Assembly (NCBI RefSeq): GCF_037042905.1
Contig: NC_087250.1
Location: 7,752,001-7,816,000, forward strand
Source: Lytechinus pictus
Lineage: Eukaryota
Direction: 5' to 3'
Length of the DNA: 64,000 bases
Shown: positions 8,143 to 62,952 of the stretch, piece after piece
Layout: each line of letters begins with the position of its first letter
How positions within the stretch are numbered: the stretch's first letter is position 1
Translations under genes and position numbers: made by a program
Notes under the pieces: generated by a model
What the model saw: the letters and a program-made list of their open reading frames with translations, nothing else
Databases searched by the model: none
What the model was told of the DNA's origin: nothing

Positions 8143-8513
8143 GGTTTATTTTCAGTTGGTCCAATTACCAACTCTTCTCCTCATCACTATCCACAGGGTC
8201 TAGTTGCCATTTCGTCCACTCACCATTTCGTCTAATAACCGGTTGGTCTAATGGTCATTTTGTCCATTTACCATTTGGTCTATACTTTGGACCAAGTGCT
8301 AATTGATTGGCCGAAATGAATGAAAAGAAAATGGGTATTAGATCAACTGGTTATGAGACGAAATGGTCATACACAAACTGGTGATTAGACAAAGTGATGA
8401 TTGGACCAAATGGTTGTTAGATGAAATGTTGATGGATGGAATGGCATTAGACTAAATGAAGGTAGACCATGTGATGAGTGGACGAGTTGGCTATAGACAA
8501 ATTGGCAATTTAC
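8143..8513 (-). mobile_element. MITE family C copy
   Basis: Reverse complement of 3049-3440. Confidence 0.8.
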
Positions 8514-19400: not shown

Positions 19401-19490
19401 CGGCAAATACATGAAATGAATGAATATCATGAAATACTTTAAAAGACTGACTTTACGAAACGTCGATTTTCTTTTTTCATCTTTCTTCAG

Positions 19491-20595
19491 ATTTTCAAAG
19501 AATACTTGATGATGGATGGTGACATCGCGAGAGAATCCAGCGGCAACGATGATTTTGAAATCATCGGAGGCGATTCTCCCGGATGCAGCAAGTCCGACGG
19601 AGACGGTGTGGTGGTCTCAGTTGAGGTTGACATCATTGCTAACGGTGATGACCTGTCAGCCTCCAAGCAACTTGATGGCGAAGAGTCCTCAGAGGTGAAC
19701 GGTGTAGGCCAGGGAGGGGAGGAAGGTGAGATAACCCATGCAAGGATAGGACAGGGTGATGTTGATGACAAGCCTAAGCAATCTGCAGAGGAATTGATGG
19801 AGGAACTTGGCATCACTATGGAGAGTGGTGACCAGGAAGATGAGGAGAGTAAGGTTAGTCCAGATGCAGGGGAGGTCGTTGAGGAGGATCAGGTTTCAGC
19901 GACGACCATGAAGACAGAAGAAGCAAGCGTGTCGCTGGACACTCTTGCAAAAGAAGAGGAGGCTGAGCCCAAGACTGAGGCTGATGATGGAAGTCAGGAA
20001 AATGGTGTTTCCATTGAGGTAATGCCTGTTGGAAAGGTAGAAGACACTCCAGAAACGCTAGAAGACAGTACTCCAGAAACACCTGATGACTCTCCCGCAG
20101 ACACTGACGATGTCACAGAACCTACCCCTAGAGATGAAGTGCCTGAAGAAACTCCAGAAATACAAGAAGAAACTCCAGAAACACGAGAAGACAGTACTCC
20201 AGAAACACCAGAAGATTCTCCTGCAGATGCCGATGCTGTTTCTGAACCTTCCCCTGAAGAGGTCACTGAGGATGCCCCTCAAGAGGTTACAGAGGATACT
20301 CCCAAAGATGTTACTGAGGATAGTGCTAATGATCTCATAGTGGAAACTCCCAAAGACCTCGCTGAAGACATCCCCAAAGACATTCCAGATACGGAGGAAG
20401 ATACCAACCAGGACTCGGCCGTTGACGTGAATCTAGACACATCTCAAGACACGTCTCATGATATATCACAGGATATCAGTTTGGATGTTTCTCTAGACAA
20501 ACCACAGGAGCTTGGTGAGGATGCACCAGCTTCTCAGGATGATGACCAAACCCTGACAGAACAGAGCTTAGATGAATCCCTTAACTCTGAGGAAG
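19491..20595 (+). CDS. Exon of a large acidic, intrinsically disordered protein (probable start ATG at 19509 or 19512)
   Basis: Acceptor TTTTTTCATCTTTCTTCAG|ATT. Long open Asp/Glu-rich frame. Donor GAAG|GTAGGT leaves phase 1, which matches the next exon. Confidence 0.85.
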
Positions 20596-21666
20596 GTAGG
20601 TCACCACTTCCTTACAAATCTTTTCAGTCAAATGTTAGATAGTCATAAAATGTGACGAGACAGTCTTTTCCCCTTTTCAGCATAAATCCTGGAACCCTCT
20701 GCTAATGATGATCTTCCATACTTGTAGGTAAACTTGTCTATAAAGATCACCAAAGTGGTACAAGACAAATGGTCTTTGAGAGCAGGTGGTCTTACTGAAC
20801 GGGATCATGTTTTTGGTCTTTATAGACTGATGGTCTTTTTATACAGGTAGTCGAGGAAAGCAGGTTTGACTGCACACCGTTCATGAAATACACAAGATCT
20901 GAAGTGGTTGTGTTAATATTCTCACGATTTTATCCAAGATCATAATTGTTGTCATCTGTAACGGTTGATTGAGTTCTGGTTGGGTCATACAAATTGTTAG
21001 AGCTCATGGTGTAGCTCATTATACTTCAGTCACATTCGCTCTACGGCGGTCGTACTGCGACTCGAAAACAGCCGTTTTAACATTTATTGTACCAGCTACA
21101 AATAGGTGGTTTGAATGAAAATGTTTTTGACTTGCCGTACGACCGCTGTAGAGCAAATTTGATTGACGTATGAGTATTGGAAAAGTTTCATGGATTAATT
21201 TCTGATGGTCATACGATACTTGAAAAGATAACTCTACATTACATTACATTAATAACACCACGTAAGTAATATCAGATAAGATATCTGACCTAACGAATCT
21301 AAAGAATAGTATTTTACCTTAAAAGAATGTTACAACGTACTGTAGAACAATCTACAGGATTGGTCGTAACTTGTAGTAAACCTAACTGAAAGAAGACGTG
21401 TGAACATTATTTGTATCACCCTTCTCAGAACTCAATATTTCCTTTCAAGAAAACAAAACCTACATAGTACTTGAATACCAGTATCAACGCTGATATTTGA
21501 ACAAGGAAATGAAATACCATATCTCTGGTACGTGTAGTTGAATTTCAACGCTTGTGATATTTGATGAATGTTGTCCAGTCAAGACCGAAACTCGAGATCA
21601 TCTTAATGACCATTATACGGAGTGAAAGTGATGACAAATTTCTATGAATAGGAGTTTTACTTTCAG

Positions 21667-21713: not shown

Positions 21714-23699
21714 AAAGATACTAGGATGTTCATTGCAGAAGGTCATAAAAGCCCTGTTACACAAAGGTTGTAATCGATGTCGGATACAATCCTGATTGGT
21801 CATTGGGTGATTTCAAGTTCAGTGTTGACCTTCTGGTGTTGGTGTAAATGTAAATTTTTGCACGATTATACCACCAAATATAAGATGATCCCGAAAAGTC
21901 ATTCACTAGTTGTTGAGATGTCAATAAAGTGATCTGGATCACTTTTACAAAATCCGAATAAGTCTTGGAGCTAGGGGAAGCAATCCAACAAATTTTAACA
22001 CCCAACACCAAGGCCAACACCAGACTTGAAATCACTCAATGGTTAGTCTGTGAACAAAATGTGCATTCAACAATGATGTTGATTGGCCATGGCAAATTCT
22101 GTGATTGATTGCCCCTTCTGTGTAACAGTGCCCAAAACTTCTTTCCATCCGACCTTTATAATCATTTATTGATTACCCCCCCCCCCCCGTTTCAGTTGTG
22201 TTGGAATTTCTATTTTCATTATTGTTGGTGGCATGTTAGTCAAAGTTGTGCTTAGTTTAGTTTGGGAATTTATAGAAGATTTATTTTTAGTTTGTTTGCT
22301 AGTTTTAGTTGCAATATTTATACTTTGATTTCTGTTTTCATTCCTTCCCAAAATAAAATCTGCACTTAGCTTTTCTTTGGAAGGCATGGCAAGAGGCTGG
22401 TTGAAGAGGAGGACACAATAAAATGCATTTAAACTGCATCATTATAAACACATTCTGGTTGAATATAAAAACTTTTTTTTTAATTACCCTAACCCTGAAC
22501 TCCCCTCTTGATCAACATGTAGTGTAGCATTTCATATCCAGCCGCAGAGCTCATTTTTGGCCTTGATGAAGAAGAATAATTTACTTTATGTAAGTGCGTT
22601 TGAATGAACAATGAATGTTTGAAAACGCTTCTCAAAGGAAGCACAAAGACACCTACTCTCCTTCTACTTTGCCATGCCTTCATTTGCATAGATGGTCAAA
22701 TAATCTTTATGTTTCATTTTGCATTCAAACCCGCTTTATGTTCCTTTTGTCCCCATGATTTGTATTTTATGTTTCTTGTTACACAGTGTAAATGTTGTTT
22801 AAAATTTTATACAACGCTGTTTACTATAATATAGATAACAATGCTTAATTTATTTTGAATTATATTGAAAATTTAACTTTGTTATTTAAGAATGTAAACA
22901 CTTGTTTAAAACTTTTAAACAACTCCTGACACATTCATATTGTAAACAGTGATGTATACAAATTTTAAACAGCGATTTTACTCTGAATGTCCTTGTCTTT
23001 GTTTTGTCCTTTGTGTTTCCTGTTCAATGTCTTTAACACAAAAGTAACAAAGGGAAGTCAGTTAAGAGCTACTAACTTTAAAAGCTCATTTTGCCTCAAA
23101 GCAGCAGTAGAAGCGAAAGCTACATAAAATTTGCTGCTTTCTAGTTTTGTTATCCTTTCTATGCTGAATTATTATTTAAAAGTTTTATTTCTTTGGGCAT
23201 TGGGAAGAAATATGTGGAGAATGGGGTACACACTAAATCAAGATCGAATATTGAAAGGTTTGACACGCACTGGACTGGGGTCAACTGTAGGTCAATTTCA
23301 GTCTGTTTTATTCTTTGCCATATGTCATTATTAAGATAAATGAGGTCTGTTTCATGAAAGTTGTCTGCAATGACAAACTGTCTTTCTCCGACAGTTACCA
23401 TAGTAACAGTCAGAGGCCAGTGTTTCTGAGCCAATCAAAACCAAGGATTTGATTAAAATTGTCCGTGCTGACAACTCTCATGAAACACCCACAAGTTCTT
23501 GTGGTCTGTCATCGATCTTGTTGGGGTCCCATTGCCATCATCTGGGTGTGAAGAATCTTTCTTCCAGATGGGTTTGGAGGGTAAAGCCTTATCCCCTGGG
23601 AATTCAGATGTAGTCCTTTTGTGACTAGACCAAGTCTTTGTTGGGTCTGCTATAAGTAGCTGACCCTAGTGATAAGTTAACATGACATTGTTGTTACAG

Positions 23700-26600
23700 T
23701 GACTCCACAGCAAGGAGATGAAACTCAGAATGACCCAGATCCGGGGGAAGGGGAAGGAGAACCAACTGCTGCACCAACACCTGATGAACCAACAGGAGAA
23801 ACTGAAAAGGAAGTAGCAGAAGAAGAAACACCAGCAGAAGAAGTGCCAGCTGAACAAGAAACACCACCTGAAGAAGAAACACCAGAACAAGCACCAGCTG
23901 AAGTAGAGACCCAAGCTGGAGAAGAGACACAAGCTGAAAAAGAAACACAAGCTGAAGAAGCAACTCCAGCTGAAGAAGAGACACCTGCTGACGAGACACC
24001 AGCTGAAGAAGAAACACAAGCTGAAGAAGCAACACCAGCTAAGGAAGATACACCAGTCGAAGAACCAACATCAGCTGAAGAAGAGACACAAACTGAAGAA
24101 GAGACACCAGCTGAGGAACCAACACCACCTGTGCAAGAAAAACCAGCTGAAGAAGAGACACCAGCTGAGGATTCACCAGCTGAAGAAGCAACACCAGCTG
24201 AAGAAGAAACACAAGCTGAAGAAGAGACAAAAGCTGAAGAAGAGACGCAAACTGAAGAAGAGACACAAACTGAAGAAGCAACACCAGCTGTGGAAGAAAC
24301 GCCAGCTGAAGAAGAAACACCGTCTGAAGAGACACCTGCTGAAGAGACACCAGCTGAAGAAGAATCACAAACTGAAGAAGAGACACAAACTGGAGAACCA
24401 ACACCAGCAGTGGAAGAAACACCCGCTGAAGAAGAAACACCGGCTGAAGAGACACCAGCTGAAGAAGAAACACAAGCTGAAGAAGAGACACAAACTGAAG
24501 AACCAACACCAGCAGTGGAAGAAACATCCGCTACAGAAGAAACACCGGCTGAAAAGACACCTGCTGAAGAGACACCAGCTGAAGAAGAAACACAAGCTGA
24601 AGAAGAGACACAAACTGAAGAACTAACACCAGCAGTGGAAGAAACACCCGCTCAAGAAGAAACACCGGCTGAAGAGACACCTGCTGAAGAGACACCAGCT
24701 GAAGAAGAAACACAAGCTGAAGAAGAGACACAAACTGAAGAACTAACACCAGCAGTGGAAGAAACACCCGCTCAAGAAGAAACACCGGCTGAAGAGACAC
24801 CTGCTGAAGAGACACCAGCTGAACAAGCAACATTGACTGAAGAAGAAACGCAAGCTGAAGAAGCAACACCGGCTGACGAAGAGAAACCATCTGAAGAAGA
24901 GACACAAACTGAAGAGGAAACACCAGCTGTGGAAGAAACGCCCACTGAAGATGGAACACCGGCTGAAGAGACACCTGCTGAAGAGACACCAGCTGAAGAA
25001 GAAACACAAGCTGAAGTAGAGACACAAACTGAAGAACCAACACCAGCAGTGAAAGAAACACCGGCTGAAGAAGAAACACCCGCTGAAGAAGGAACACTGG
25101 CTGAAGAGACACCTGCTGAAGAGACACCAGCTGAAGAAGAAACACAAGCGGAAGAAGAGACACAAACTGAAGAACCAACACCAGCAGTGGAAGAAATTCC
25201 CGCTGAAAAAGAAACACCCGCTGAAGAAGAAACACAAGCTGAAGAAGAGACACAAACTGAAGAAGTAACACCAGCTGTGGAAGAAGCACCTGCTGAAGAA
25301 GAAACACCAGCTGAAGAGACACCTGCTGAACTAGCAACACTGGCTGAAGAAGAAACGCAAGCTGAAGAAGCAACACCGGCTGACGAAGAGAAACCATCTG
25401 AAGAAGAGACACTGGCTGAAGAACCAACACCAGCTGTGGAAGAAACACCCATTGCAGCAGAGACACTGGCTGAAGAAGCAACACCAGCTGGAGAAGAAAC
25501 ACAAGCTGGAGAAGAAACACAAGCTGAAGAAGCACCACCAGCTGAAGAAGAGACACAAGCTGGAGAAGCCACATCAGCTGAAGTAGAGACACCAGCTGAA
25601 GAACCAACACCAGCTGCAGAACCAACACCAGCTGAAGAAGAGACACTGGCTGAAGAAGAAATACAAGATGAAGAACCAACACCACCTGTGGAAGAAACAC
25701 CGGCTGAAGAAGAGACACAGGCTGAAGAAGAGACACAACCTGAAGAAGAGACACAACCTGAAGAAGATAAAACTGCTGTACAAGAGACACCAGCTGAAGA
25801 AGAAACACATGCTGAAAAAGAGACACCAGCTGAAGAAGAAACACCTGCTGAAGAAGAATCAAATTCTGAGGAAGTGGTTGAGAAGAGGGTGTCTGCCTCA
25901 GACTTGGTTGAAGAGTTTGGACTGACATTAGATGAGGGTGATCAGAGTGTATCTGTATTTGGTCAGGAAACTGAAAACAAATCTGGTGATGAAATGGTGG
26001 AAGAAGAAAAAGTTGTTCCAACGACACAAAATCCAGAGGAAGCAGATATCAGATTAGACTTTTTATGTAGCACAGAGGAAGCTGAAGTTACAGAGAAAGG
26101 TGCTGAGGAAATTGAAACAGAGGATGTTGTGGATGGGGTAAATATAGATGAAGTAGCAAGTACATTGGATGTCTCTCCCACAGGAGATGAGGGTGTTTCA
26201 ACAGAACAATCAGAAGAAGTTGATGCCAGTGAAGGAAAAGAAGCTGTGAAAGATGCAGAAGAAGAGTCATCACCTGTAACCCAGGAGGCTGATAATGTAG
26301 TAGAGGAAGTATCAGACAATGTGCCAGCAGCTGTTGAGACCGAGGTAGAAAAATTGAGCAAGGAAACAAAAGAGACAGAGGAGAAAGAGGATGAGACAGT
26401 GGAGGGATTACCCAAGGAAGCACCAGAAATTATTGTCACTAGTGAAGAGGCTATTGTGGATGAAGAAGCTGGTGATGATGAAGTGAAAGAGGATACTAAC
26501 CAGGCAGCTGAGGAAATGGCCACAGAAGAACAGGAGGTGGTGGAAGAGTCAGTGAGGGAAGAAATCACAAGGGATGTTGAAGCATGTCCTGAAGATTCAC

Positions 26601-27593
26601 CAGATGACGGGGACAAAGCAGTTAGTGAAGAAGTAGTGGAGGGTGATTCAGAACAAGTAGAAGTTATTGTTGCAGAAGCCGAACAAGCAAAAGAGGAAAT
26701 TATTCAGGCAACAGAGGAATCAGCCACAGAGGAACATGAGGTGGTTGAAGAGCCAGTGAGGGAAGAACTCACGGAAGATGTTGAAGCATGTCCTGAAGAT
26801 TCACCAGATGATGGGGACAAAGCAGTTAGTGAAGAAGTAGTGGAGGATGACTCAGAACAAGTAGAAGTTCTTCATGATGAAGCAGAACAAGCAGAAGAGG
26901 AAACAGTAAATGATGATGTGTGCCAAGATGCCTCTGAGGATACAAGTGATGAGGCAGTTACTGAAGAGGTGAAAGTGACAGACACAGAAGAAGCCACTGA
27001 GATACCATCACCTGAAAAAGAAGCTGTTACAGAAGTTGTTGAAGAAACTGTTGTGGATACTGTTGAACTGGAAACGGAAGCCACATTATCACAAGACATA
27101 GAGAAGGAAGTGGTTATTGATACAGACATTGCAACAGAGAATGTTGAAATTGAAGAGTCTACAGAGGAAACGGAGCAAGATGTTCCAGAGGAGGCAGACC
27201 AAGCGGTGGTAGAACAGGAAGCGGTAGAAGAAAAGACTGAGGAGGTGAGCCAGACTGAAGTAATAAAACAAGAGGTTGGAACGGAAACAGAACAGCTGCC
27301 ACCGTCAGAAGAAAGTGAAGAGGTGGCTGAAGTGATCCCTGTGGAACCCCAAGAAGAACTGAAGGAGGAATCTACTGAGGAGCCACAGACTGAAGAGCCA
27401 AAGACAGAATCAGTGGAAGAAACCAAAGAAGTACCAGAAGAGCCTGTTGAGGAACCTCCAAAGGACACACCAGTCAATGGTGTTTCTGAGGATACTGTCT
27501 TCAATGGGGTGCTTCTTAATGGACATGATGGTGGTCATCTTACCAATGGACATCATGTATCTGAAGACGACCACTTGACCAATGGTGATGAAG
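23700..27593 (+). CDS. Giant symmetric (phase 1-1, 3894 nt) exon encoding a Glu/Thr/Pro/Ala-rich repeat region
   Basis: Acceptor TTGTTGTTACAG|TG completes G|TG from the previous exon. 1298 codons without a stop. Donor GAAG|GTGAGT. Confidence 0.9.
23815..25860 (+). repeat. Coding minisatellite: 15/18-nt units (AEEETP/AEEETQ/AEETP) with a 120-bp higher-order repeat
   Basis: 24541-24660 and 24661-24780 are near-identical. Frame is preserved throughout. Confidence 0.95.
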
Positions 27594-29684
27594 GTGAGTC
27601 TGGAGGTTTTGTTTTTATTGAAAATGAGCTAGTCTGGTTTTTTCAATTGTGAGATGAAATTCAGCTTCGTAATTAATAAACAGAGAACCAGGACAATGGT
27701 ACATGCCCCCACCCCCCCAAAAAAAAGTATGAAAGATAGGAAAAAGGATATTTACAAACACTTTCTAGTTCGCCTTCTGTTAATGTTGTAAATAGAACAG
27801 TTCAAAGTGAAAATATCATTTTTTTAGAGAGAAAATTTGTTGAAAATCCTGATATTTGGTAGAGGTTACAAATATTTTTCTTTGTTTTGTTTTTTGAGGG
27901 GTGAGGTGATGAACCAAATAGCAGCTCACATTCGGAAAGCCAGACTAGCCACAATGTACAGATAAGATATCGATCTTAGATACTGCTCCAAATGAAACAA
28001 ATAATTCATATTAAATTGGTCGTTCCAAAATCACTTAAGCTCTTGCCTCTTGAGGAATTTAGTTAAAGATTTGTAATATGGGTTTCTAGTATCTCCCTTC
28101 CTCCTGGTATGTGATGTGTATTATACCTTCCCTCTATCATTAATTTCCATCCTTGTTTCACTCGATGCCTCATTCGTTCGTTCAATCATCAAAACCATAC
28201 CCCCCATGCAACGTGTTGCATGCATAGACTAGGACTTAGGATTGTATGACTCAGTTAGTTTCCTTATAAACGATCATTATCGTAGGCATGCCCATATGCT
28301 AAATCATAGTTGTTCCTTGCAAAACTTGCCAATAATATATCTTTGAAGAATGAAATAGATAGATCTCCCTTTTTTCCTGAGTTTAGAGGCATGTCTCCTG
28401 TAGACCAGATTTATATAGTCTCAGAAAAAGTAGACCATATCTATATAGTCTCGGCAAAATTAGACCAGATTCATATAGCTTTCAGAAAAAAAGTAGACCA
28501 AGTCTAGCAACTAATAGCTAATTTTGAATCATGACGATAAACCCCTCCCCCAATATTACAGTATTGTGAATAACCATTATCCACAAGACGCTTGATTTTT
28601 ATCTTTTGAATATATTAATTTTTTAACTTTTTCCTTGTACTCTTCCTAATTCAAACAATTTTTGGCAAATACAAAGTTTTAAATGCAATAGAATAAATCT
28701 ATATTAAAGCACTGTTTTTTGTGAATTCCATGCAAAAAAAAAATGATATAGATGTTCTTATAATGATCTCATAATGTTTTGTTTCGAGATTTTTTTTAAT
28801 GACTTTTTACAAAAAGTCAGTTGAGAAGACTTAAGAACTCGATCCACTTTACAAATTTATTAACGGTACTATGGTAGTGTATAGGAAAATTTGAACCTTA
28901 ATGCCCATCTGTATTTACCGTCATACTGAATCATTACAGGATATATAGTTTGGAGGAAATATGATGTAATTAAGGAAAACAGCTGATATGAATAGATACC
29001 CGGATAACCCAGATTCTTAATAATTCATGTCCATTTACCATGTGGTAATGATGTTTTTAATTATGTTATTTGTCAGTTCATGTATGTTTTGTTGGGGTGG
29101 AATTCATCATTTATTGATACATATGGGAGAGGGGGGAGTTAACGCTCTTCAAACTTTCCTGTGAAAAAAACCTACATGTTACGTCATCGAATTTCATACC
29201 AAAATCCGACAATTTTTGTGCGAAACTACACTCTCAGCATTTCTTGAAAAACCTGTAATATTAATTCTTATTATCTTACTATGAATAAAATCAAATTGAG
29301 TATGCTTGGTTGTTTTTTTGTAGCACACCATTTTCAGCTATGCTACTTGTAGTATCAATACTACCATATATTTGCAACAATAAATGGCTTTTATGAGATA
29401 GATGTATCTAGAATTTAGTTGCGCAAACTTTGAGCAAGAATATTTGGAAAGTGTTAACTCTCTCCAAGATGTCTGTAATTTGGTGTTTCATGGTATGGTT
29501 ATGTTCACACGGTCAACTAACATGGGTATGTTGTTTTGTTTTTCTTGTTTCTAACCCGTCCTTTTCCCCATCCGTCATTGTATTCACCCCATATCAACAT
29601 TGCCCCTCCTCCCGACCACTCCCATCACCCCCACGTCATTTAATGGAACAACCCACCCCTATGTCATGTAATGGAACGACCCAG

Positions 29685-33049: not shown

Positions 33050-33286
33050 TCATATAATAAAATACAAAAGAACAAGTGGGGATATGACATCATCAGCCCA
33101 CCTAATGAATATTCATAAAGACTAGAACTAGTCTAGTCTAGAACTGTTTCACCGGAATAAAGCAAATCTTTAAAATTAAATAACTTTGTTATTTGTTATC
33201 CGGTTTTGATCAAATTTTCAGCATTTTGCTCTGTGAAATTTTCTCTATTTATTGAGATATATATGTTTCCAGCCTGGACCACCCCT
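33050..33286. mobile_element. Right end of a Kolobok-like MITE
   Basis: Ends ...GGACCACCCCT|TTAA. The subterminal ATCCGGTTTTGATCAAATTTTCAGCA resembles 56070-56100. Confidence 0.6.
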
Positions 33287-34569
33287 TTAAGCATCACCAT
33301 CTGAAACGACTTGAACATCAGACCTTGAAACTCTGCATAAATTTTGCAAACTCCCCCATGTAGCTTGAATTACAGGTGCACACCCCAGTGCCGAGTTTTG
33401 CTTTCAATTAAAAAGTTTTACAAACTTGATATTTGTTGACATGTATGAACTGGGGAAATCCCCTTTGATACCACATCAAATTCTTTCCATTGTAGAATTA
33501 CATTTTATCCCACTTTTTTATTACTATTTTCAATGGGTAAGAAATGATGCATGGCAAACTCTTGTCAGCATACAATCTGTTTATTGCAGTCATGAAAATA
33601 GTCTGCAAAAACAGACCTTTGGTTTCCATATACTGCATAATGCAGGGTCTGAAATAGGAGACTAGATTCACTCATGTTCTACTGTGGCTGCTTGTTTGAC
33701 ATAGCATGGACATGGACATAGGTCCATGGACACAGACACAGAGTTTGGGGTCTGCTAGTCTCCACACCAGACATGGTATTAGTTGTTAGTGTTAAATTAG
33801 AGTCTGTGCTAGAAGACTAGTCATGATACTAGTTTATCCCCTCAAATCATGGTATATTAGAAATGTATCCCTGCTGAAGCATGACACCTCATGGAATAGT
33901 CATTACTATGTCATCACCATGTCGTTAGTTTCTTTGATCATTATTCAGTGCATTCACACTGCAAAAATCTCCGCTTTTATGCAGGAATCTTCTTGCTACA
34001 TGGTGTAGAAGCCCTATACCATAAAAACATTGAATGGTTGCGTTTTTTGTCAGTCTGAATGCCACAAAGAAACACATTTTTTTACATATTGTACAATGCA
34101 TGATTTAGTATCACTTCAGAGATAATCAAGGTGAAAAATTGTGAGTCCTACATGTAGTCTCCTAGTGCAGAAACATGGTTCTGGAGCAAACATGTTTAAC
34201 CATTGCACAAATTTGCGCAATTAATGAAGGCTTTCGAACCCTACATGTATAACCAAAACATGATTGCATGTACTTCATCTCAAGCGTGCCCTGAAATGCA
34301 TTTTGATCGGCAATTTTATACCAGCGTAAAGTTGATAAATTCAGCCATAGTGAAAAATTACTCTGCCCAAGATATGACACACTAATTCAAGATTATTGAT
34401 TGCTAGTCATGGGTTTCTACTTGATTTTACCACAGCTGAAGGCTTGATTAATGTTGAGGAAATGGCTAAGGCTTTCATGATATGATTTCTTGTGAGATAT
34501 TCTCCTGCTGTATTAATAGATGCTGGTTGATATTCTCTGTAGACCTGTAAATCCTCAAATTATTAGACA

Positions 34570-35047: not shown

Positions 35048-35570
35048 TATATGTATTTGAAGAGTCTCAGGGATCCCATTCTCGTCTACTTCCTTAAATT
35101 AGTTGAGTGGAAACCAGTTAACATGTAAAGGAACGCTCAAAGCGTTCCTAAAAGCAACCGAAAGTGGTCTTCCTAAAACTAGGGTAGTTTGGAAAACCAC
35201 CTCATGATTTGATTTTCAAGACAAAAAGCAATCGAAATTGGTCTTCCCAAAACTAGGGTAGTTTGGAAAACCACCTACATCTTGGTGTGATTTTCAAGAC
35301 TGCTATGCCTTGGTGAAATAGTTTAAATGTAGGTGAGGACACAACCGTTTTTCGGGGAGCGATCTCCGCACAGAAGTACACGAGTGTGAGCATGCTACGT
35401 GCGCTACTCTGTACACACTTCTTGACCAAGTGAAACTACTATTATCAACTGTTATTAGATTTGGTATAGTGACGGGTTGTGCATGTAGAAATCAATCTTG
35501 TTTTGAGAACTGATAGTGCTCTGCTGCCCTCTTGTGCTGTAATACCATATAGTTGCCCAGGCAGAGTGTG

Positions 35571-35749
35571 TGTGTGTATTTGAGTTTTGTCAGACGTGTA
35601 TCAATCAGATATGATTATTTACATCTGGGACCGACTTTTAACGTCACCATCCGAAAGACGTGACCAGGGCTCGAACCCTGAACCTCTGCATCAATTTGTA
35701 ACTTCCCCACACAGCTTGGATTACAGGCGCACGCCACAACGCCCAGTTT
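35571..35749 (-). mobile_element. 7SL(SRP)-RNA-derived SINE, copy 1
   Basis: Minus strand begins CTGGGCGTTGTGGCGTGCGCCTGTAATCCAAGCT (7SL Alu-domain-like). B box GGTTCGAGCCC and (CA)n tail. Perfect 11-bp TSD GGCAGAGTGTG (35560-35570, 35750-35760). Confidence 0.85.
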
Positions 35750-35803
35750 GGCAGAGTGTGCTATTACATACCAAATTTGAATGAGAAAAAAGGGGGTATT
35801 AAA

Positions 35804-36208
35804 TGAATTTCCAATTGGTCTAATGCCAATTCGTTCAATTGCCAACTCATCTACTATCATTTGGTCTACCATCAGTTCGTCCACTATCCATATGGTCTAA
35901 ATTCCAATTTGGTACACTCACCATTTCGTCTAATAAACAGTTGGTCCAATAGCCATTTAGTCCATTTACCATTGGGTCTAATTGGACTTTCAGTGTTAAT
36001 TGTGCAAAATGAATGAAAATGGAATGGATATTAGACCAGTTGGTTATGAGACGAAATGGTCATACACGAAGTGGTGATTAGACGAAGTGATGATTGGACC
36101 AAATGATAATCGGACCAAATGGTTGTTAGACAAAATGTTGATAGACGGAATGGCATTAGACTAAATGAAAGTAGACCATGTGGTGAGTGAACGAATTGCC
36201 AATTTACC
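35804..36208 (-). mobile_element. MITE family C copy
   Basis: Reverse-complement similarity to 3049-3440. Ends ...GCCAATTTACC. Confidence 0.8.
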
Positions 36209-44637: not shown

Positions 44638-44806
44638 GTGGGTGTTTCATAAAGCTGTTCGTAAAAGAGCGACTTTACGAACGACTGGTGATCCTTTCTT
44701 GTTGTTAATGGTATATTGAATTTGCAATGGTTAAGCGCGTAAGAAAGGTTCACCAGTCTTTCTTAAAGTCGCTCTTAACTTAAGAACAGCTTTATGAAAC
44801 GGCCCC
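44638..44806. mobile_element. Harbinger-like MITE inserted in a SINE fragment
   Basis: CAG|GTGGGTGTTTCATAAAGCTG...CAGCTTTATGAAACGGCCCC|CAG. Same family as 15876-16262. Confidence 0.85.
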
Positions 44807-48584: not shown

Positions 48585-48645
48585 TTTACTAAGGTCTTCT
48601 ACTACTACCACCACTACTACTACTAGTCTACTGCTACTTCTTCTT

Positions 48646-48676
<31 letters not shown>

Positions 48677-48689
48677 ACTACTACTTCTA

Positions 48690-48727
<38 letters not shown>

Positions 48728-48805
48728 TTACTAAGGTCTACTACTACTACCACTACTACTACTAGTCTACTGCTACTTCTACTACTACTACTACTACTAC
48801 TACTG

Positions 48806-48853
<48 letters not shown>

Positions 48854-48940
48854 TTACTACTGCTACTACTACTACTACTACTCAGTACTACTACTATTAC
48901 TACTACTATTACTACTACTACAACTGCTGCTGCTGCTACT
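48299..48940. repeat. (CTA)n/(CCA)n compound microsatellite
   Basis: Direct periodicity. Confidence 0.95.
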
Positions 48941-49171
48941 GTTGTTGCCAGTCCATTATTAGTTACCATACAATTCCTGTTAAATCCAAATACAATATCT
49001 GTTTGACCATATATCATTATGTATGGAACAGTGTGACAGGTATTTTAATTTGTTTAAATTGGTTGAATTTCCAACAGGAAAATGCTTGTTTGGCTTGATG
49101 GTGGGTAAAAAAAATGAAAAGCAAATGAAGGTTATGAGAGGGAATGTACACACTTAGATGATTGTTTTAAG

Positions 49172-49669
49172 GGTTCCATGACATTTACTCCGGCGACAAT
49201 TGCTCCGGCGACAATTTCTCCGATGGAAAATATGCATGTACATACCGGTGTGTTGGCTCAGTTGGTAGAGCGTCCGTCTCACAACCGGGAGGTCGGGGGT
49301 TCAAACCCCGACGGCGTCAGACCAAAAGACGTTAAAAGATGGAAGTTGCTGCTACCCTGTTTGGCGATCAATGATTAAATGGATAGATCATCGTCGATCT
49401 GGCGCTGCACAGCGGCTGCCTGGCCCACGATCAATTGGGCAAAGCAAATTTTCGGAGTATTTCATTTCATGTCTATTTCGAACAATGAAATATGGAATTT
49501 CATCATCATGTTAAGCCAAACATAAAATCTAACCTCCAAATCTAAATAAACCCTTATCATTATTGCATTATTCTGAACCAAAAACTCTAATGCAATCCAA
49601 ACTCGAACCCGACGCCCTCTGAGATATCAGGATCGGAGCAAATGTCCCAGGAGCAAATGTCATGTCACT
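49172..49669. mobile_element. MITE with 8-bp TSD, hosting a SINE
   Basis: GTTTTAAG|GGTTCCATGACATTT...AAATGTCATGTCACT|GTTTTAAG. Confidence 0.8.
49244..49509 (+). mobile_element. tRNA-derived SINE
   Basis: A box TGGCTCAGTTGG (49254-49265), B box GGTTCAAACCC (49298-49308), tRNA-unrelated body, (CAT)n end. Confidence 0.85.
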
Positions 49670-50991: not shown

Positions 50992-51434
50992 CTGTATTCC
51001 AGACCTCGCCTTGTCGGTGCAGGAACGCCCATAGCATCACACTTCCGCGCACCCTATCGGTGCAGAAAACCCTTGTGCGAAACTAAGGACGTTTCTGCGC
51101 ACATGCAATGCGCGAAAGTATGGTACTATGGGTGCTCCTGCAACAACACAACGATTTCAATGCGCGCGGTCAGTCAAAACGTTGTATTGCTCTGTTACAG
51201 TACATGTTTCCAATGGGATTTGCACATTTTATTAAAAAAATGTATGGCATCGCCGTGAAAAATCCTCTTATATCTCAGAAAATAGAATAAATTGCTGCCT
51301 ACAAATTTAGTTACGAATAGAGTAGGACTTGTACTTTAATTTTCTGCAAAAATCTCAAAATAATTTTTTTTTTGGACCAAAATTGACTGATACAACGGTT
51401 CGGATGACCGCCGACGAAATATGCAAAAAGAGAT

Positions 51435-51610
51435 GTGTGTGTGTGTGTATTTGAGTTTTGTCAGACGTGTATCAATCAGATATGATTATTTACGTCTGGG
51501 ACCGACCTTTAACGTCACCATCCGAAAGACGTGACCAGGGCTCGAACCTCTGCATCAATTTGTAACTTCCCCACATAGCTTGGATTACAGGCGCACGCCA
51601 CAACGCCCAG
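51435..51610 (-). mobile_element. 7SL(SRP)-RNA-derived SINE, copy 2
   Basis: Differs from copy 1 by 3 substitutions and a 7-bp indel. (CA)n tail. Possible 6-bp TSD AGAGAT (51429-51434, 51620-51625). Confidence 0.85.
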
Positions 51611-52493
51611 AGAACTTTGAGAGATTAGGCTTTTCCAAGGCTTTTGCCTCTTCAGGGTGATCCTCCACCGAGGATCCGATCTGCAGAATCACTTAGAGCA
51701 TTTAAAAAAAATATATTTTACATCACATCTGTTTTCATCTTATTTTTATGCAATATTGAAGCTAATTTGATCAGTTCATGCATCCAAACATCAAAACATC
51801 TGTAATTCCTAAGCTCCTCCCCCATTCTTGCTGCGCCTCGAATTATTTCACTAGATAGATGGTGCATAATTAATGCTGTATTCATTTATCCGTTCAGACA
51901 ATTTGTATCCATAAATAAATTCTTATAGTTTGCCATATATATGTTTTTTATTCATATTTTGTTCGTAACAGTCTTGCATATTGAGATGGTGTTTAAACTT
52001 CTGCTCGTAGTAATTAATGACATTTTTTCGTTGACCCCCACCCCCCTCCAATGTTAAAATATTCTACATAACACTCTTTGCAGTACGAATGATATAGTAG
52101 TTGTTTAACAGTTTAAATAAGATGTTAAAATCTTAAATGCAAAAGTGTAATTTTTGGTAAATTAAGCATGGTTGTTAAAACCCTTAAAATTACTACTGTA
52201 GATTTCATATAGTAAACAGCATCTAAAATTTTTAACATAATTTTTACTTAATTAACAATCTTGTCTGGATACTCGATATTCATTTTATACTCGAAATTGC
52301 TTCTTTATACCGTACTTCATGACACATTTTTACCTGAGGGATCAGGCGGGTTATTATCAGAGGAAAGGTATAATTACTACAGCAAGAAAAGCTGACATGC
52401 AAGTTCAAAAGGTCAATCATTAAAGCACATGGACAGGTCCAACATTTCAGCCGAATATAGTCTTTTCAGACCTCCTGAGTCATTGGATGTTAA

Positions 52494-61308: not shown

Positions 61309-62020
61309 TTGATATAGAAAAGGGATTAATAAAAATAATAATAACGGTATATTTACCCAGGGTAGCCACTTCAGTTCCGAAAACTTCTCCCAGCGGGCCC
61401 TGGTATTATTATGACCCGGCTACCCGGAGACCCTGTTTTTCACTCTGCCCCAGTAGGCTCGTAGACCCCCATTTCAGGGTTTCGTGAGGCACACCCCCAT
61501 CAAAATTAATTTGAGTGCCCCCCCCCCCCCCCGGTGAATAATACTCCAATTAGTAACACACTCATCTATCTCATCATTTCTCTCATCATATAAAGAATGA
61601 AAAAAATATAACTATGATATCTGCAAGCATCATGAATATTTAATGTAAGCAGTTATTAGTGTGTAAATTATTGAATAAAAGTAATTTTCATTTAATATGC
61701 ATATATCTCTCCTTGAATGTTATTTTGATTTTGATGTAAATATGTGCATGTTGCTGTATGTTAATGTAACAATTTCTGAAGATTGTCAATTCCATTTCCA
61801 TGTATATAAACTTCATTTGTGATTGGCATATAATATTTGATCAAATTTTGCAATTTTTGTTTCATATATTTTACTCAGTTTAGCTTCATGGTTTAGCTAT
61901 CCTTCAATTTTTCAGAATGACACTCCATAAAATGAACTCTATACTCTTAATTATTTTACTTCTAAATCTGTATTGGTGTGAATTCTGCTCCTGCTGCGTA
62001 TGCCTATACTGCTGACTGCT

Positions 62021-62091
62021 GCTGCTACTACTACTACTACTACTTCTACTACTACTACGCACTACTGCTACTACTTCTACTACTACTACTT

Positions 62092-62128
<37 letters not shown>

Positions 62129-62142
62129 TTCTACTTCTACTT

Positions 62143-62224
<82 letters not shown>

Positions 62225-62421
62225 GCACTACTGCTACTACTTCTACTACTACTACTACTACTACTTCTACTACTACTACTACTACTTCTACTTCTACTAC
62301 TACTTCTACTACTACTACGCACTACTGCTACTACTTCTACTACTACTACTACTACTACTACGCACTACTGCTACTACTTCTACTACTACTACTTCTACTA
62401 CTACTACTACTACTTCTACTT

Positions 62422-62464
<43 letters not shown>

Positions 62465-62478
62465 TTCTACTTCTACTT

Positions 62479-62518
<40 letters not shown>

Positions 62519-62602
62519 TACTACTACTACTACTACTACTACGCACTACTGCTACTACTTCTACTACTACTACTTCTACTACTACTACTACTACTTCTAC
62601 TT

Positions 62603-62639
<37 letters not shown>

Positions 62640-62893
62640 TTCTACTTCTACTACTACTACTACTACTTCTACTACTACTACTACTACTACTACGCACTAC
62701 TGCTACTACTTCTACTACTACTACTTCTACTACTACTACTACTACTTCTACTTCTACTACTACTACTACTACTACTACCACTACTACCACTACTACTATA
62801 CTATTCCCATACTACTACTACTATATTACCACCATTGCTGCTGCTACTACTACTACTGGGCAATTCCATAAATTATGTACGTACTACTACTTC
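62021..62893. repeat. Long (CTA/CTT)n microsatellite with a recurring TACGCACTACTGC subunit
   Basis: Direct periodicity. Explains the poly-Y/L/T ORFs. Confidence 0.95.
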
Positions 62894-62952
62894 TAGTATT
62901 TCTATTTTATCTTATTAAATAATGTTCAATATGATCATATTTGTTTTTGCAG

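Follow-up and report, generated by a model that had tools for sequence, protein, structure and literature searches.

According to specialists, independent lineages of SINEs derived from 7SL RNA are extremely rare, and three have appeared in print (PMC13023118). Kojima reported in 2018 that SINE1 occurred in Euarchontoglires only (PMC5786205), and in 2020 described SINE1-1_EBu (Ebu1-1) from the hagfish Eptatretus burgeri as the first SINE1 outside that group (PMC7245038). Kosushkin et al. (2026) added Urop from the shrew mole and, by their own statement, knew of no further case (PMC13023118). An initial annotation of the locus studied here had listed Euarchontoglires and hagfish as the only known hosts of 7SL SINEs, a statement superseded by the publication of this third independent lineage.

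All described 7SL SINE families have a central deletion of about 183 nt in common (PMC13023118). In Alu, B1, Tu and Urop the whole sequence comes from 7SL; these families have a poly(A) tail and depend on L1 for their mobility (PMC13023118). SINE1-1_EBu is 282 bp long and contains 96 nt from the 5' part of 7SL and about 44 nt from its 3' end, which together make up the full Alu domain, along with a 7SL-type box B (AGCTCTGCGCT), RTE-derived segments and an (AAC)n tail. The chimeric 7SL/tRNA SINEs, such as the Tu types of the tree shrew and GarnAlu of the bushbaby, are fusions of whole monomers that occur in mammals and have A tails (PMC7245038, PMC13023118).

Here, we describe a retroposed family with a 7SL-like head and Pol III promoter box motifs, copies of which lie in a 64-kb stretch of DNA that was analyzed over its whole length of 64,000 nucleotides and is referred to below as the window. 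The element resembles SINE1-1_EBu in joining a 7SL head to a non-7SL body and tail, in ending with a simple repeat instead of poly(A), in its apparently chimeric origin and in its presumed mover, a sequence-specific LINE other than L1 (PMC7245038). However, it is 179 bp long, has about 47 nt of 7SL and a box B of the tRNA type, and ends in a (CA)n tail. It shares with Alu, B1, Tu and Urop a 5' Alu domain (helices 2–4 and the UGUAAU turn) placed at the very 5' end, but differs from them in that a 7SL 3' part cannot be detected, an A tail is missing and the 3' stem-loop is LINE-like. As in the Tu types and GarnAlu, 7SL and tRNA-like promoter modules appear to be mixed (PMC7245038, PMC13023118); in the present element, however, the 7SL 5' domain and the T-arm-like box B segment may both belong to one monomer instead of two fused ones. 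In its general layout of Pol III head, body, 3' stem-loop, short-repeat tail and target-site duplications of variable length, the element also resembles SINE2 elements, which have a tRNA head and a LINE-derived tail; the difference lies in its head, for which the SRP model gives a score and the tRNA model gives none. Judged by sequence, it would be classified as a SINE with a 7SL-derived head, of the SINE1 kind, that belongs to none of the described families, from which it is set apart by their published descriptions.

An alternative that would remove only the novelty of the element is that it is a genuine 7SL-headed SINE whose family is already held in Repbase or Dfam, or that it belongs to a known vertebrate lineage. 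Repeat libraries contain many families that were never described in papers, which gives this explanation some weight, but we consider it unlikely on three counts. Literature searches, including a full-text search with three words from the element, turned up no published description of such a family. Two papers by specialists give supraprimates, hagfish and now the shrew mole as the only groups with known 7SL SINEs (PMC7245038, PMC13023118). Finally, the combination of 179 bp, a (CA)n tail and a 5' domain alone is unlike the poly(A) tails of the known families and the 282 bp and (AAC)n tail of the hagfish element.

A retroposed insertion and its copies

The insertion, SINE copy 1, is 179 bp long and occupies positions 35571–35749 on the minus strand, as established by reading of the sequence, blastn against the window and alignment of the copies. 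The initial annotation had described a minus-strand element of about 180 bp, and the minus strand of this interval reads as given there. It lies between two perfect 11-bp direct repeats, located by an 11-mer search: one at 35750–35760, on the 5' side of the element (minus-strand sequence CACACTCTGCC), and one on its 3' side at 35560–35570 (minus strand). In its plus-strand reading, GGCAGAGTGTG, this 11-mer occurs exactly twice in the window, both times directly flanking copy 1, compared to 0.01 matches expected from shuffles, and the perfect 11-bp target-site duplication reported earlier is thereby upheld. On the minus strand, copy 1 starts with AAACTGGGCGTTGTGG and ends with ACAAAACTCAAATA followed by a short (CA) run, the (CA)n tail of the initial annotation, which merges into the target-site duplication. 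In all three copies found in the window, CTGGGCG or CTCGGCA is preceded by AAA(A), so that all begin with AAA(A)CT at the same 5' start. The true start of the element is therefore 2–3 nt upstream of where it had originally been placed.

An 18-base word from the head occurs three times in the window, twice exactly and once with 2 mismatches, compared to 0.03 expected. Sensitive blastn with the element as query likewise gave exactly three copies in the window and nothing else above noise. At this density, the genome would contain tens of thousands of copies, although such an estimate is very rough. Copy 2 (about 51435–51619, minus strand), recognized by blastn, by its match to the Metazoa_SRP model and by alignment, is young like copy 1, and has a candidate 6-bp duplication, ATCTCT, at 51620–51625 and 51429–51434. 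The two young copies are 98% identical in aligned positions, with three transitions among 176 aligned positions. They also differ by two indels: near the 5' end, copy 2 is longer than copy 1 by 5 nt, and between two GGTTC repeats it is shorter by 7 nt. Copy 3 (about 33181–33399, minus strand), recognized by blastn and alignment, is an old and diverged relative with 72% identity over about 145 nt and a different, A-rich 3' end. It is flanked by a possible decayed AT-rich duplication at about 33401–33414 and 33168–33180. Because the old copy 3 carries the longer form at the GGTTC-repeat site, that form is probably ancestral.

Taken together, these elements have several features of SINEs: they are short (179–219 bp) and non-coding, and three copies sit at unrelated sites within 64 kb, with duplications that are perfect in copy 1 (11 bp), a 6-bp candidate in copy 2 and a decayed candidate in copy 3. 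The duplication, the copies and their common 5' start thus define a retroposed family that was recently active and has an older layer. That copy 1 is a retroposed insertion, as proposed in the initial annotation, is confirmed by its target-site duplication, the three copies and the simple-repeat tail.

None of the nine CpG sites of the young copies survives in copy 3, and eight of the nine read TpG or CpA there, which fits methylation-driven decay. In the window as a whole, the observed/expected ratio of CpG is 0.52 at a G+C content of 37.7%, and TpG and CpA are in excess. Compared to typical values, this ratio speaks against a mammalian host and is no more specific than that; the invertebrate deuterostome suggested in the initial annotation may be the right host. 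The CpG depletion of the window, together with the loss of CpG from copy 3, suggests germline CpG methylation in the host.

Sequence collections outside the window were searched with words and patterns from the element. In viral contigs, a 15-mer gave at least 119 stretches, of which 80 loci were compared, and a 16-mer gave 24 loci. When all 143 outside loci that were retrieved were compared to the element by blastn, the longest alignment was 22 nt or less, and the viral-contig loci are therefore chance word matches. A 24-base degenerate pattern made from the element had no match in viral contigs, and patterns from the element had none in contigs of prokaryote genomes. In metagenome contigs, a two-anchor pattern found two loci, identical to each other, that have only the anchors in common with the element and thus also represent a chance match. 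Among the sequencing runs listed, 23 of 24 contain part of the element and six contain at least half of the 16 words sampled, counted as word presence only. The listed runs carry three organism labels and come from nine studies, with no RNA runs among them, and they do not enter into the conclusions drawn here.

The window contains several other repetitive features. Three long, imperfect foldbacks of about 200–240 bp each, at 8192–8397 (plus strand), 21799–22042 (both strands) and 35887–36122 (minus strand), consist of short repeats rich in GGTC/GACC and have weak, sub-threshold matches to MIR2630, a plant miRNA family derived from MITEs; they are likely to be a MITE-like family of inverted repeats. 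One of them is located about 130 bp from SINE copy 1. With the mir-7 model, a palindromic hairpin at 44664–44777 gave about 29 bits on either strand (below the gathering score of 51.8; E 0.06–0.09); an inverted repeat is a likelier explanation for it than a miRNA gene. Long arrays of trinucleotide microsatellites at 48593–49044 and 61966–62918 would translate into poly-Leu, poly-Tyr or poly-Thr in all frames. Two plus-strand open reading frames of 399 residues (19443–20642) and 1323 residues (23681–27652) are extremely acidic, consist of Glu/Thr/Pro/Ala-rich repeats with ETPAEE-like units, and have a short non-repetitive motif in common. No Pfam family matched either frame, and no homologue was returned for residues 820–1323 of the longer one. 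Overall, 319 of the 320 ORF translations scanned against Pfam (97 + 150 + 73) had no match, and the remaining one had a weak match to CENP-P (19.3 bits, below the Pfam cut-off of 25).

The 7SL/SRP-like head

The best match to copy 1 among all 4227 Rfam families was Metazoa_SRP, with a score of 30.0 bits and an E-value of 3.7e-6 in a search of 401 nt, or of 5.9e-4 when the 64-kb window is taken as the search space. The match covers a head of 47 nt at 35701–35747 (minus strand) that corresponds to the 5' domain of metazoan SRP/7SL RNA, comprising helices 2, 3 and 4. Position 1 of the model falls on 35747, i.e., on the third base of the element. A SINE head would be expected to start at such a place, which supports the reading of this segment as the head. 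Copy 2 gave a local match to model positions 1–44 with 23.2 bits and an E-value of 2.5e-4, in which 31 of the 44 positions were identical to the model consensus and pairs with a positive score accounted for ten more. Since a single base distinguishes the heads of copies 1 and 2, these count as one observation. Among the nine Rfam matches of the old copy 3 at E-values up to 10, none was to SRP RNA or tRNA. The initial annotation had proposed a 7SL-like head from a hand alignment to the human 7SL sequence, in which it counted 27/35 matching positions for copy 1 and 28/35 for copy 2; it was against the Rfam model (30 and 23 bits), and not against the human sequence, that this proposal was borne out.

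An Rfam scan with gathering thresholds reported nothing at the element, and the match to Metazoa_SRP appears when E-value thresholds are used. The score of 30 bits compares to a gathering score of 70, and about 47 of the 299 model positions are truly matched. As expected, a fragment of only 47 nt falls below the gathering score. A gene for SRP RNA (RF00017) would be full length, include the S domain and score at least 70 bits, and no S domain was found in the element. With this score, and with the same composite structure in all copies, the element is neither an SRP gene nor a simple pseudogene, in agreement with the initial annotation.

Within the head, the likeness to 7SL consists of helices 2–4 and the UGUAAU turn. 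In the model alignment of copy 1, helix 2 reads ACU/AGU where the consensus is gCc/gGc, and this helix has thus been kept through changes on both strands. Further states specific to the element are GUUG in helix 3 and the loop AAGCUAYG. The UGGC loop of helix 3 and CCUGUAAUCC are identical to the Metazoa_SRP consensus. The linker between helices 3 and 4, UGUAAU (35720–35725, minus strand), which forms the U-turn of the Alu domain, is identical to the consensus CCUGUAAu and single-stranded in the minimum-energy fold; its retention had been noted before. When the head (48–49 nt) was folded in isolation, the minimum-energy structure consisted of helix 3, a single-stranded GUAA and helix 4, the same topology as in the model. 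The folding energies of the heads of the young copies gave z-scores of +0.26 and -0.08, with 112 of 200 and 88 of 200 shuffles folding as well, and those of the whole elements gave z-scores of -1.0 and -0.5. The heads fold no more stably than shuffled sequence, and these energies lend no support to the 7SL reading.

On either young copy, no tRNA (RF00005), 5S or snRNA family matched at E-values up to 10, and ARAGORN found no tRNA in the window; a head that aligns to a tRNA cloverleaf, the hallmark of SINE2, was thus absent from these searches. With tRNA absent and SRP matching at 3.7e-6 and 2.5e-4, the reading of the head as 7SL stands. The second-best Rfam family for copy 1 was mir-1268, which we take to be itself derived from Alu.

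The likeness to 7SL ends at about nt 47, close to the point (about nt 45) where the initial annotation had the sequence depart from it. An alternative is that the element has the full Alu-like architecture, i.e., that roughly its first 105 nt are 7SL from which the central S domain was deleted while both the 5' and 3' parts of the Alu domain were kept. Infernal does align copy 1 globally to model positions 1–299 with 197 central positions replaced by 6 nt, and this global alignment scores 30.0 bits compared to 23.2 bits for copy 2, of which just the 5' part is aligned; moreover, a central deletion is common to all described 7SL SINEs (PMC13023118). However, beyond about nt 47 the alignment of copy 1 is weak: the part assigned to helix 5 contains many non-standard pairs, has low posterior probabilities and agrees with the consensus at hardly any base. 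For copy 2, the alignment is local and confined to positions 1–44, and the minimum-energy folds consist of separate local hairpins instead of a long helix 5. Because of this weak alignment and the local-only match of copy 2, we did not accept an Alu-like arrangement of 5' and 3' parts, and consider it improbable. The description of the element as "Alu-like" in the initial annotation overstates its architecture: it has only the 5' Alu domain, which is homologous to the 5' end of 7SL as in SINE1; the 3' segment that completes the Alu domain in SINE1, and with it the 5' plus 3' arrangement common to all described 7SL SINEs, is absent.

Promoter motifs, body and tail

Both boxes of a putative internal Pol III promoter are present as sequence motifs. 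An A-box-like sequence, GGCGTTGTGG, at 35734–35743 (minus strand) matches eight of ten bases of box A from human 7SL (GGCGCGGTGG) and from the hagfish element (GGCGCAGTGG), both compared as printed in PMC7245038, and lies at the equivalent place in the Metazoa_SRP alignment. About 58 nt downstream is GGTTCGAGCCC at 35667–35677 (minus strand), at the position of the B-box-like motif that had been recognized initially. This box B is unlike the 7SL box B printed in PMC7245038 and is of the tRNA type. It is located in a hairpin, CAGGG-TTCGAG-CCCTG, that is similar to the T arm of a tRNA, and the AGGTT just before it resembles a tRNA variable loop. The consensus of the tRNA-type box B is GGTTCGANNCC, to which the motif is a perfect fit.

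The box B hairpin is followed by a body hairpin formed by GTCACGTC and GGATGGTGAC (35643–35664, minus strand), which is predicted in the minimum-energy folds of both young copies and of which GATGGTGA is kept in the old copy 3. The tail (35571–35642, minus strand) comprises a predicted stem-loop, then ACAAAACTCAAATA and the short (CA) run. The stem-loop is modestly more stable than shuffled sequence, with a z-score of -2.0 in copy 1 (8 of 200 shuffles as good) and -1.5 in copy 2 (16 of 200). A blastn search with the element found no LINE with the same tail in the 64-kb window.

Elsewhere in the window, a tRNA-Val-like sequence at 49247–49319 (plus strand) exceeded the gathering threshold of the Rfam tRNA model, with 36.8 bits, but was not called by ARAGORN. 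It is followed, within about 150 nt downstream, by GACCAAAAGACGTTAAAAGATGGAAGTTGCTGCT. Rather than being a tRNA gene, this sequence probably forms the head of a SINE derived from tRNA, with the conserved body of that SINE downstream; the body presumably resembles a domain of SINEs in marine invertebrates. The tRNA-Val-like head and copy 1 have the 11-mer GACGTTAAAAG in common, at a similar distance from the T arm. We considered the possibility that the body of our element shares its origin with this SINE, and rejected it since the local alignment was not significant (42 of 500 shuffles scored as well).

The least probable alternative is that the element is an ordinary tRNA-derived SINE (SINE2) whose 5' end came to look like 7SL by chance or by convergence on the Pol III box A: its perfect tRNA-type box B in a T-arm-like hairpin, the AGGTT resembling a variable loop, the 11-mer shared with the tRNA-Val-like head and the fact that tRNA heads are by far the commonest (PMC7245038, PMC13023118) all point that way, but the head is matched by the SRP model and not by RF00005 or ARAGORN in the searches described above, the alignment to the tRNA-like SINE of the window is not significant, and boxes A and B lie about 58 nt apart, nearer to the spacing in 7SL (boxes at 6–15 and 76–86; PMC7245038) than to that in a tRNA.

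Proposed origin and significance

We consider it likely that the insertion belongs to a composite family of SINEs with a 7SL-derived head. The first 47 nt would descend from the 5' domain of 7SL/SRP RNA, from helix 2 through helix 3 and the UGUAAU turn to helix 4, and this stretch would also hold the box A part of the internal Pol III promoter. The consensus box B would come from a T-arm-like hairpin, itself of uncertain origin, which would be followed by the family-specific hairpin, the 3' stem-loop and the (CA)n tail.

Judging from the motifs, the element would be transcribed by Pol III from boxes A and B. In the transcript, the reverse transcriptase of a sequence-specific ("stringent") LINE other than L1 may then recognize the 3' stem-loop and repeat tail, and this enzyme would copy the RNA into nicked target DNA by target-primed reverse transcription, leaving duplications of 6–11 bp. 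By analogy with Alu, the retained 7SL 5' domain probably binds SRP9/14, and docking through these proteins would bring the RNA to ribosomes that are making the LINE protein, as has been proposed for Alu itself. According to a 2024 preprint, Alu cannot retrotranspose without a 46-nt 5' Alu domain, and this domain associates with SRP9/14 (PMC11760393). The hagfish 7SL SINE shows that a 7SL head is compatible with mobilization by a LINE other than L1, and Kojima argued from that element that the fold of the Alu domain is under constraint in SINE1 (PMC7245038).

More tentatively, the family could represent a further independent capture of 7SL, the first outside supraprimates, hagfish and the shrew mole and possibly one in an invertebrate, which would use only the 5' Alu domain of about 46 nt together with a non-L1 LINE that recognizes a stem-loop. 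We regard this as a serious possibility that falls somewhat short of being probable.

Each new lineage of 7SL SINEs is a replicate of the evolutionary experiment behind Alu. Experiments on human Alu identified the 5' Alu domain of about 46 nt as the minimal part for retrotransposition (PMC11760393). The present family keeps the 5' Alu domain only and appears to depend on a different kind of LINE, and two questions therefore become directly testable: whether the 46-nt domain that binds SRP9/14 suffices in nature, and whether docking to ribosomes helps the SINEs of stringent LINEs. If the host is an invertebrate, the known range of 7SL SINEs would extend beyond vertebrates. If the family does represent an independent capture, it would provide natural evidence that docking through the SRP9/14 domain benefits SINEs whatever the clade of their LINE, and that the 3' Alu domain is dispensable.
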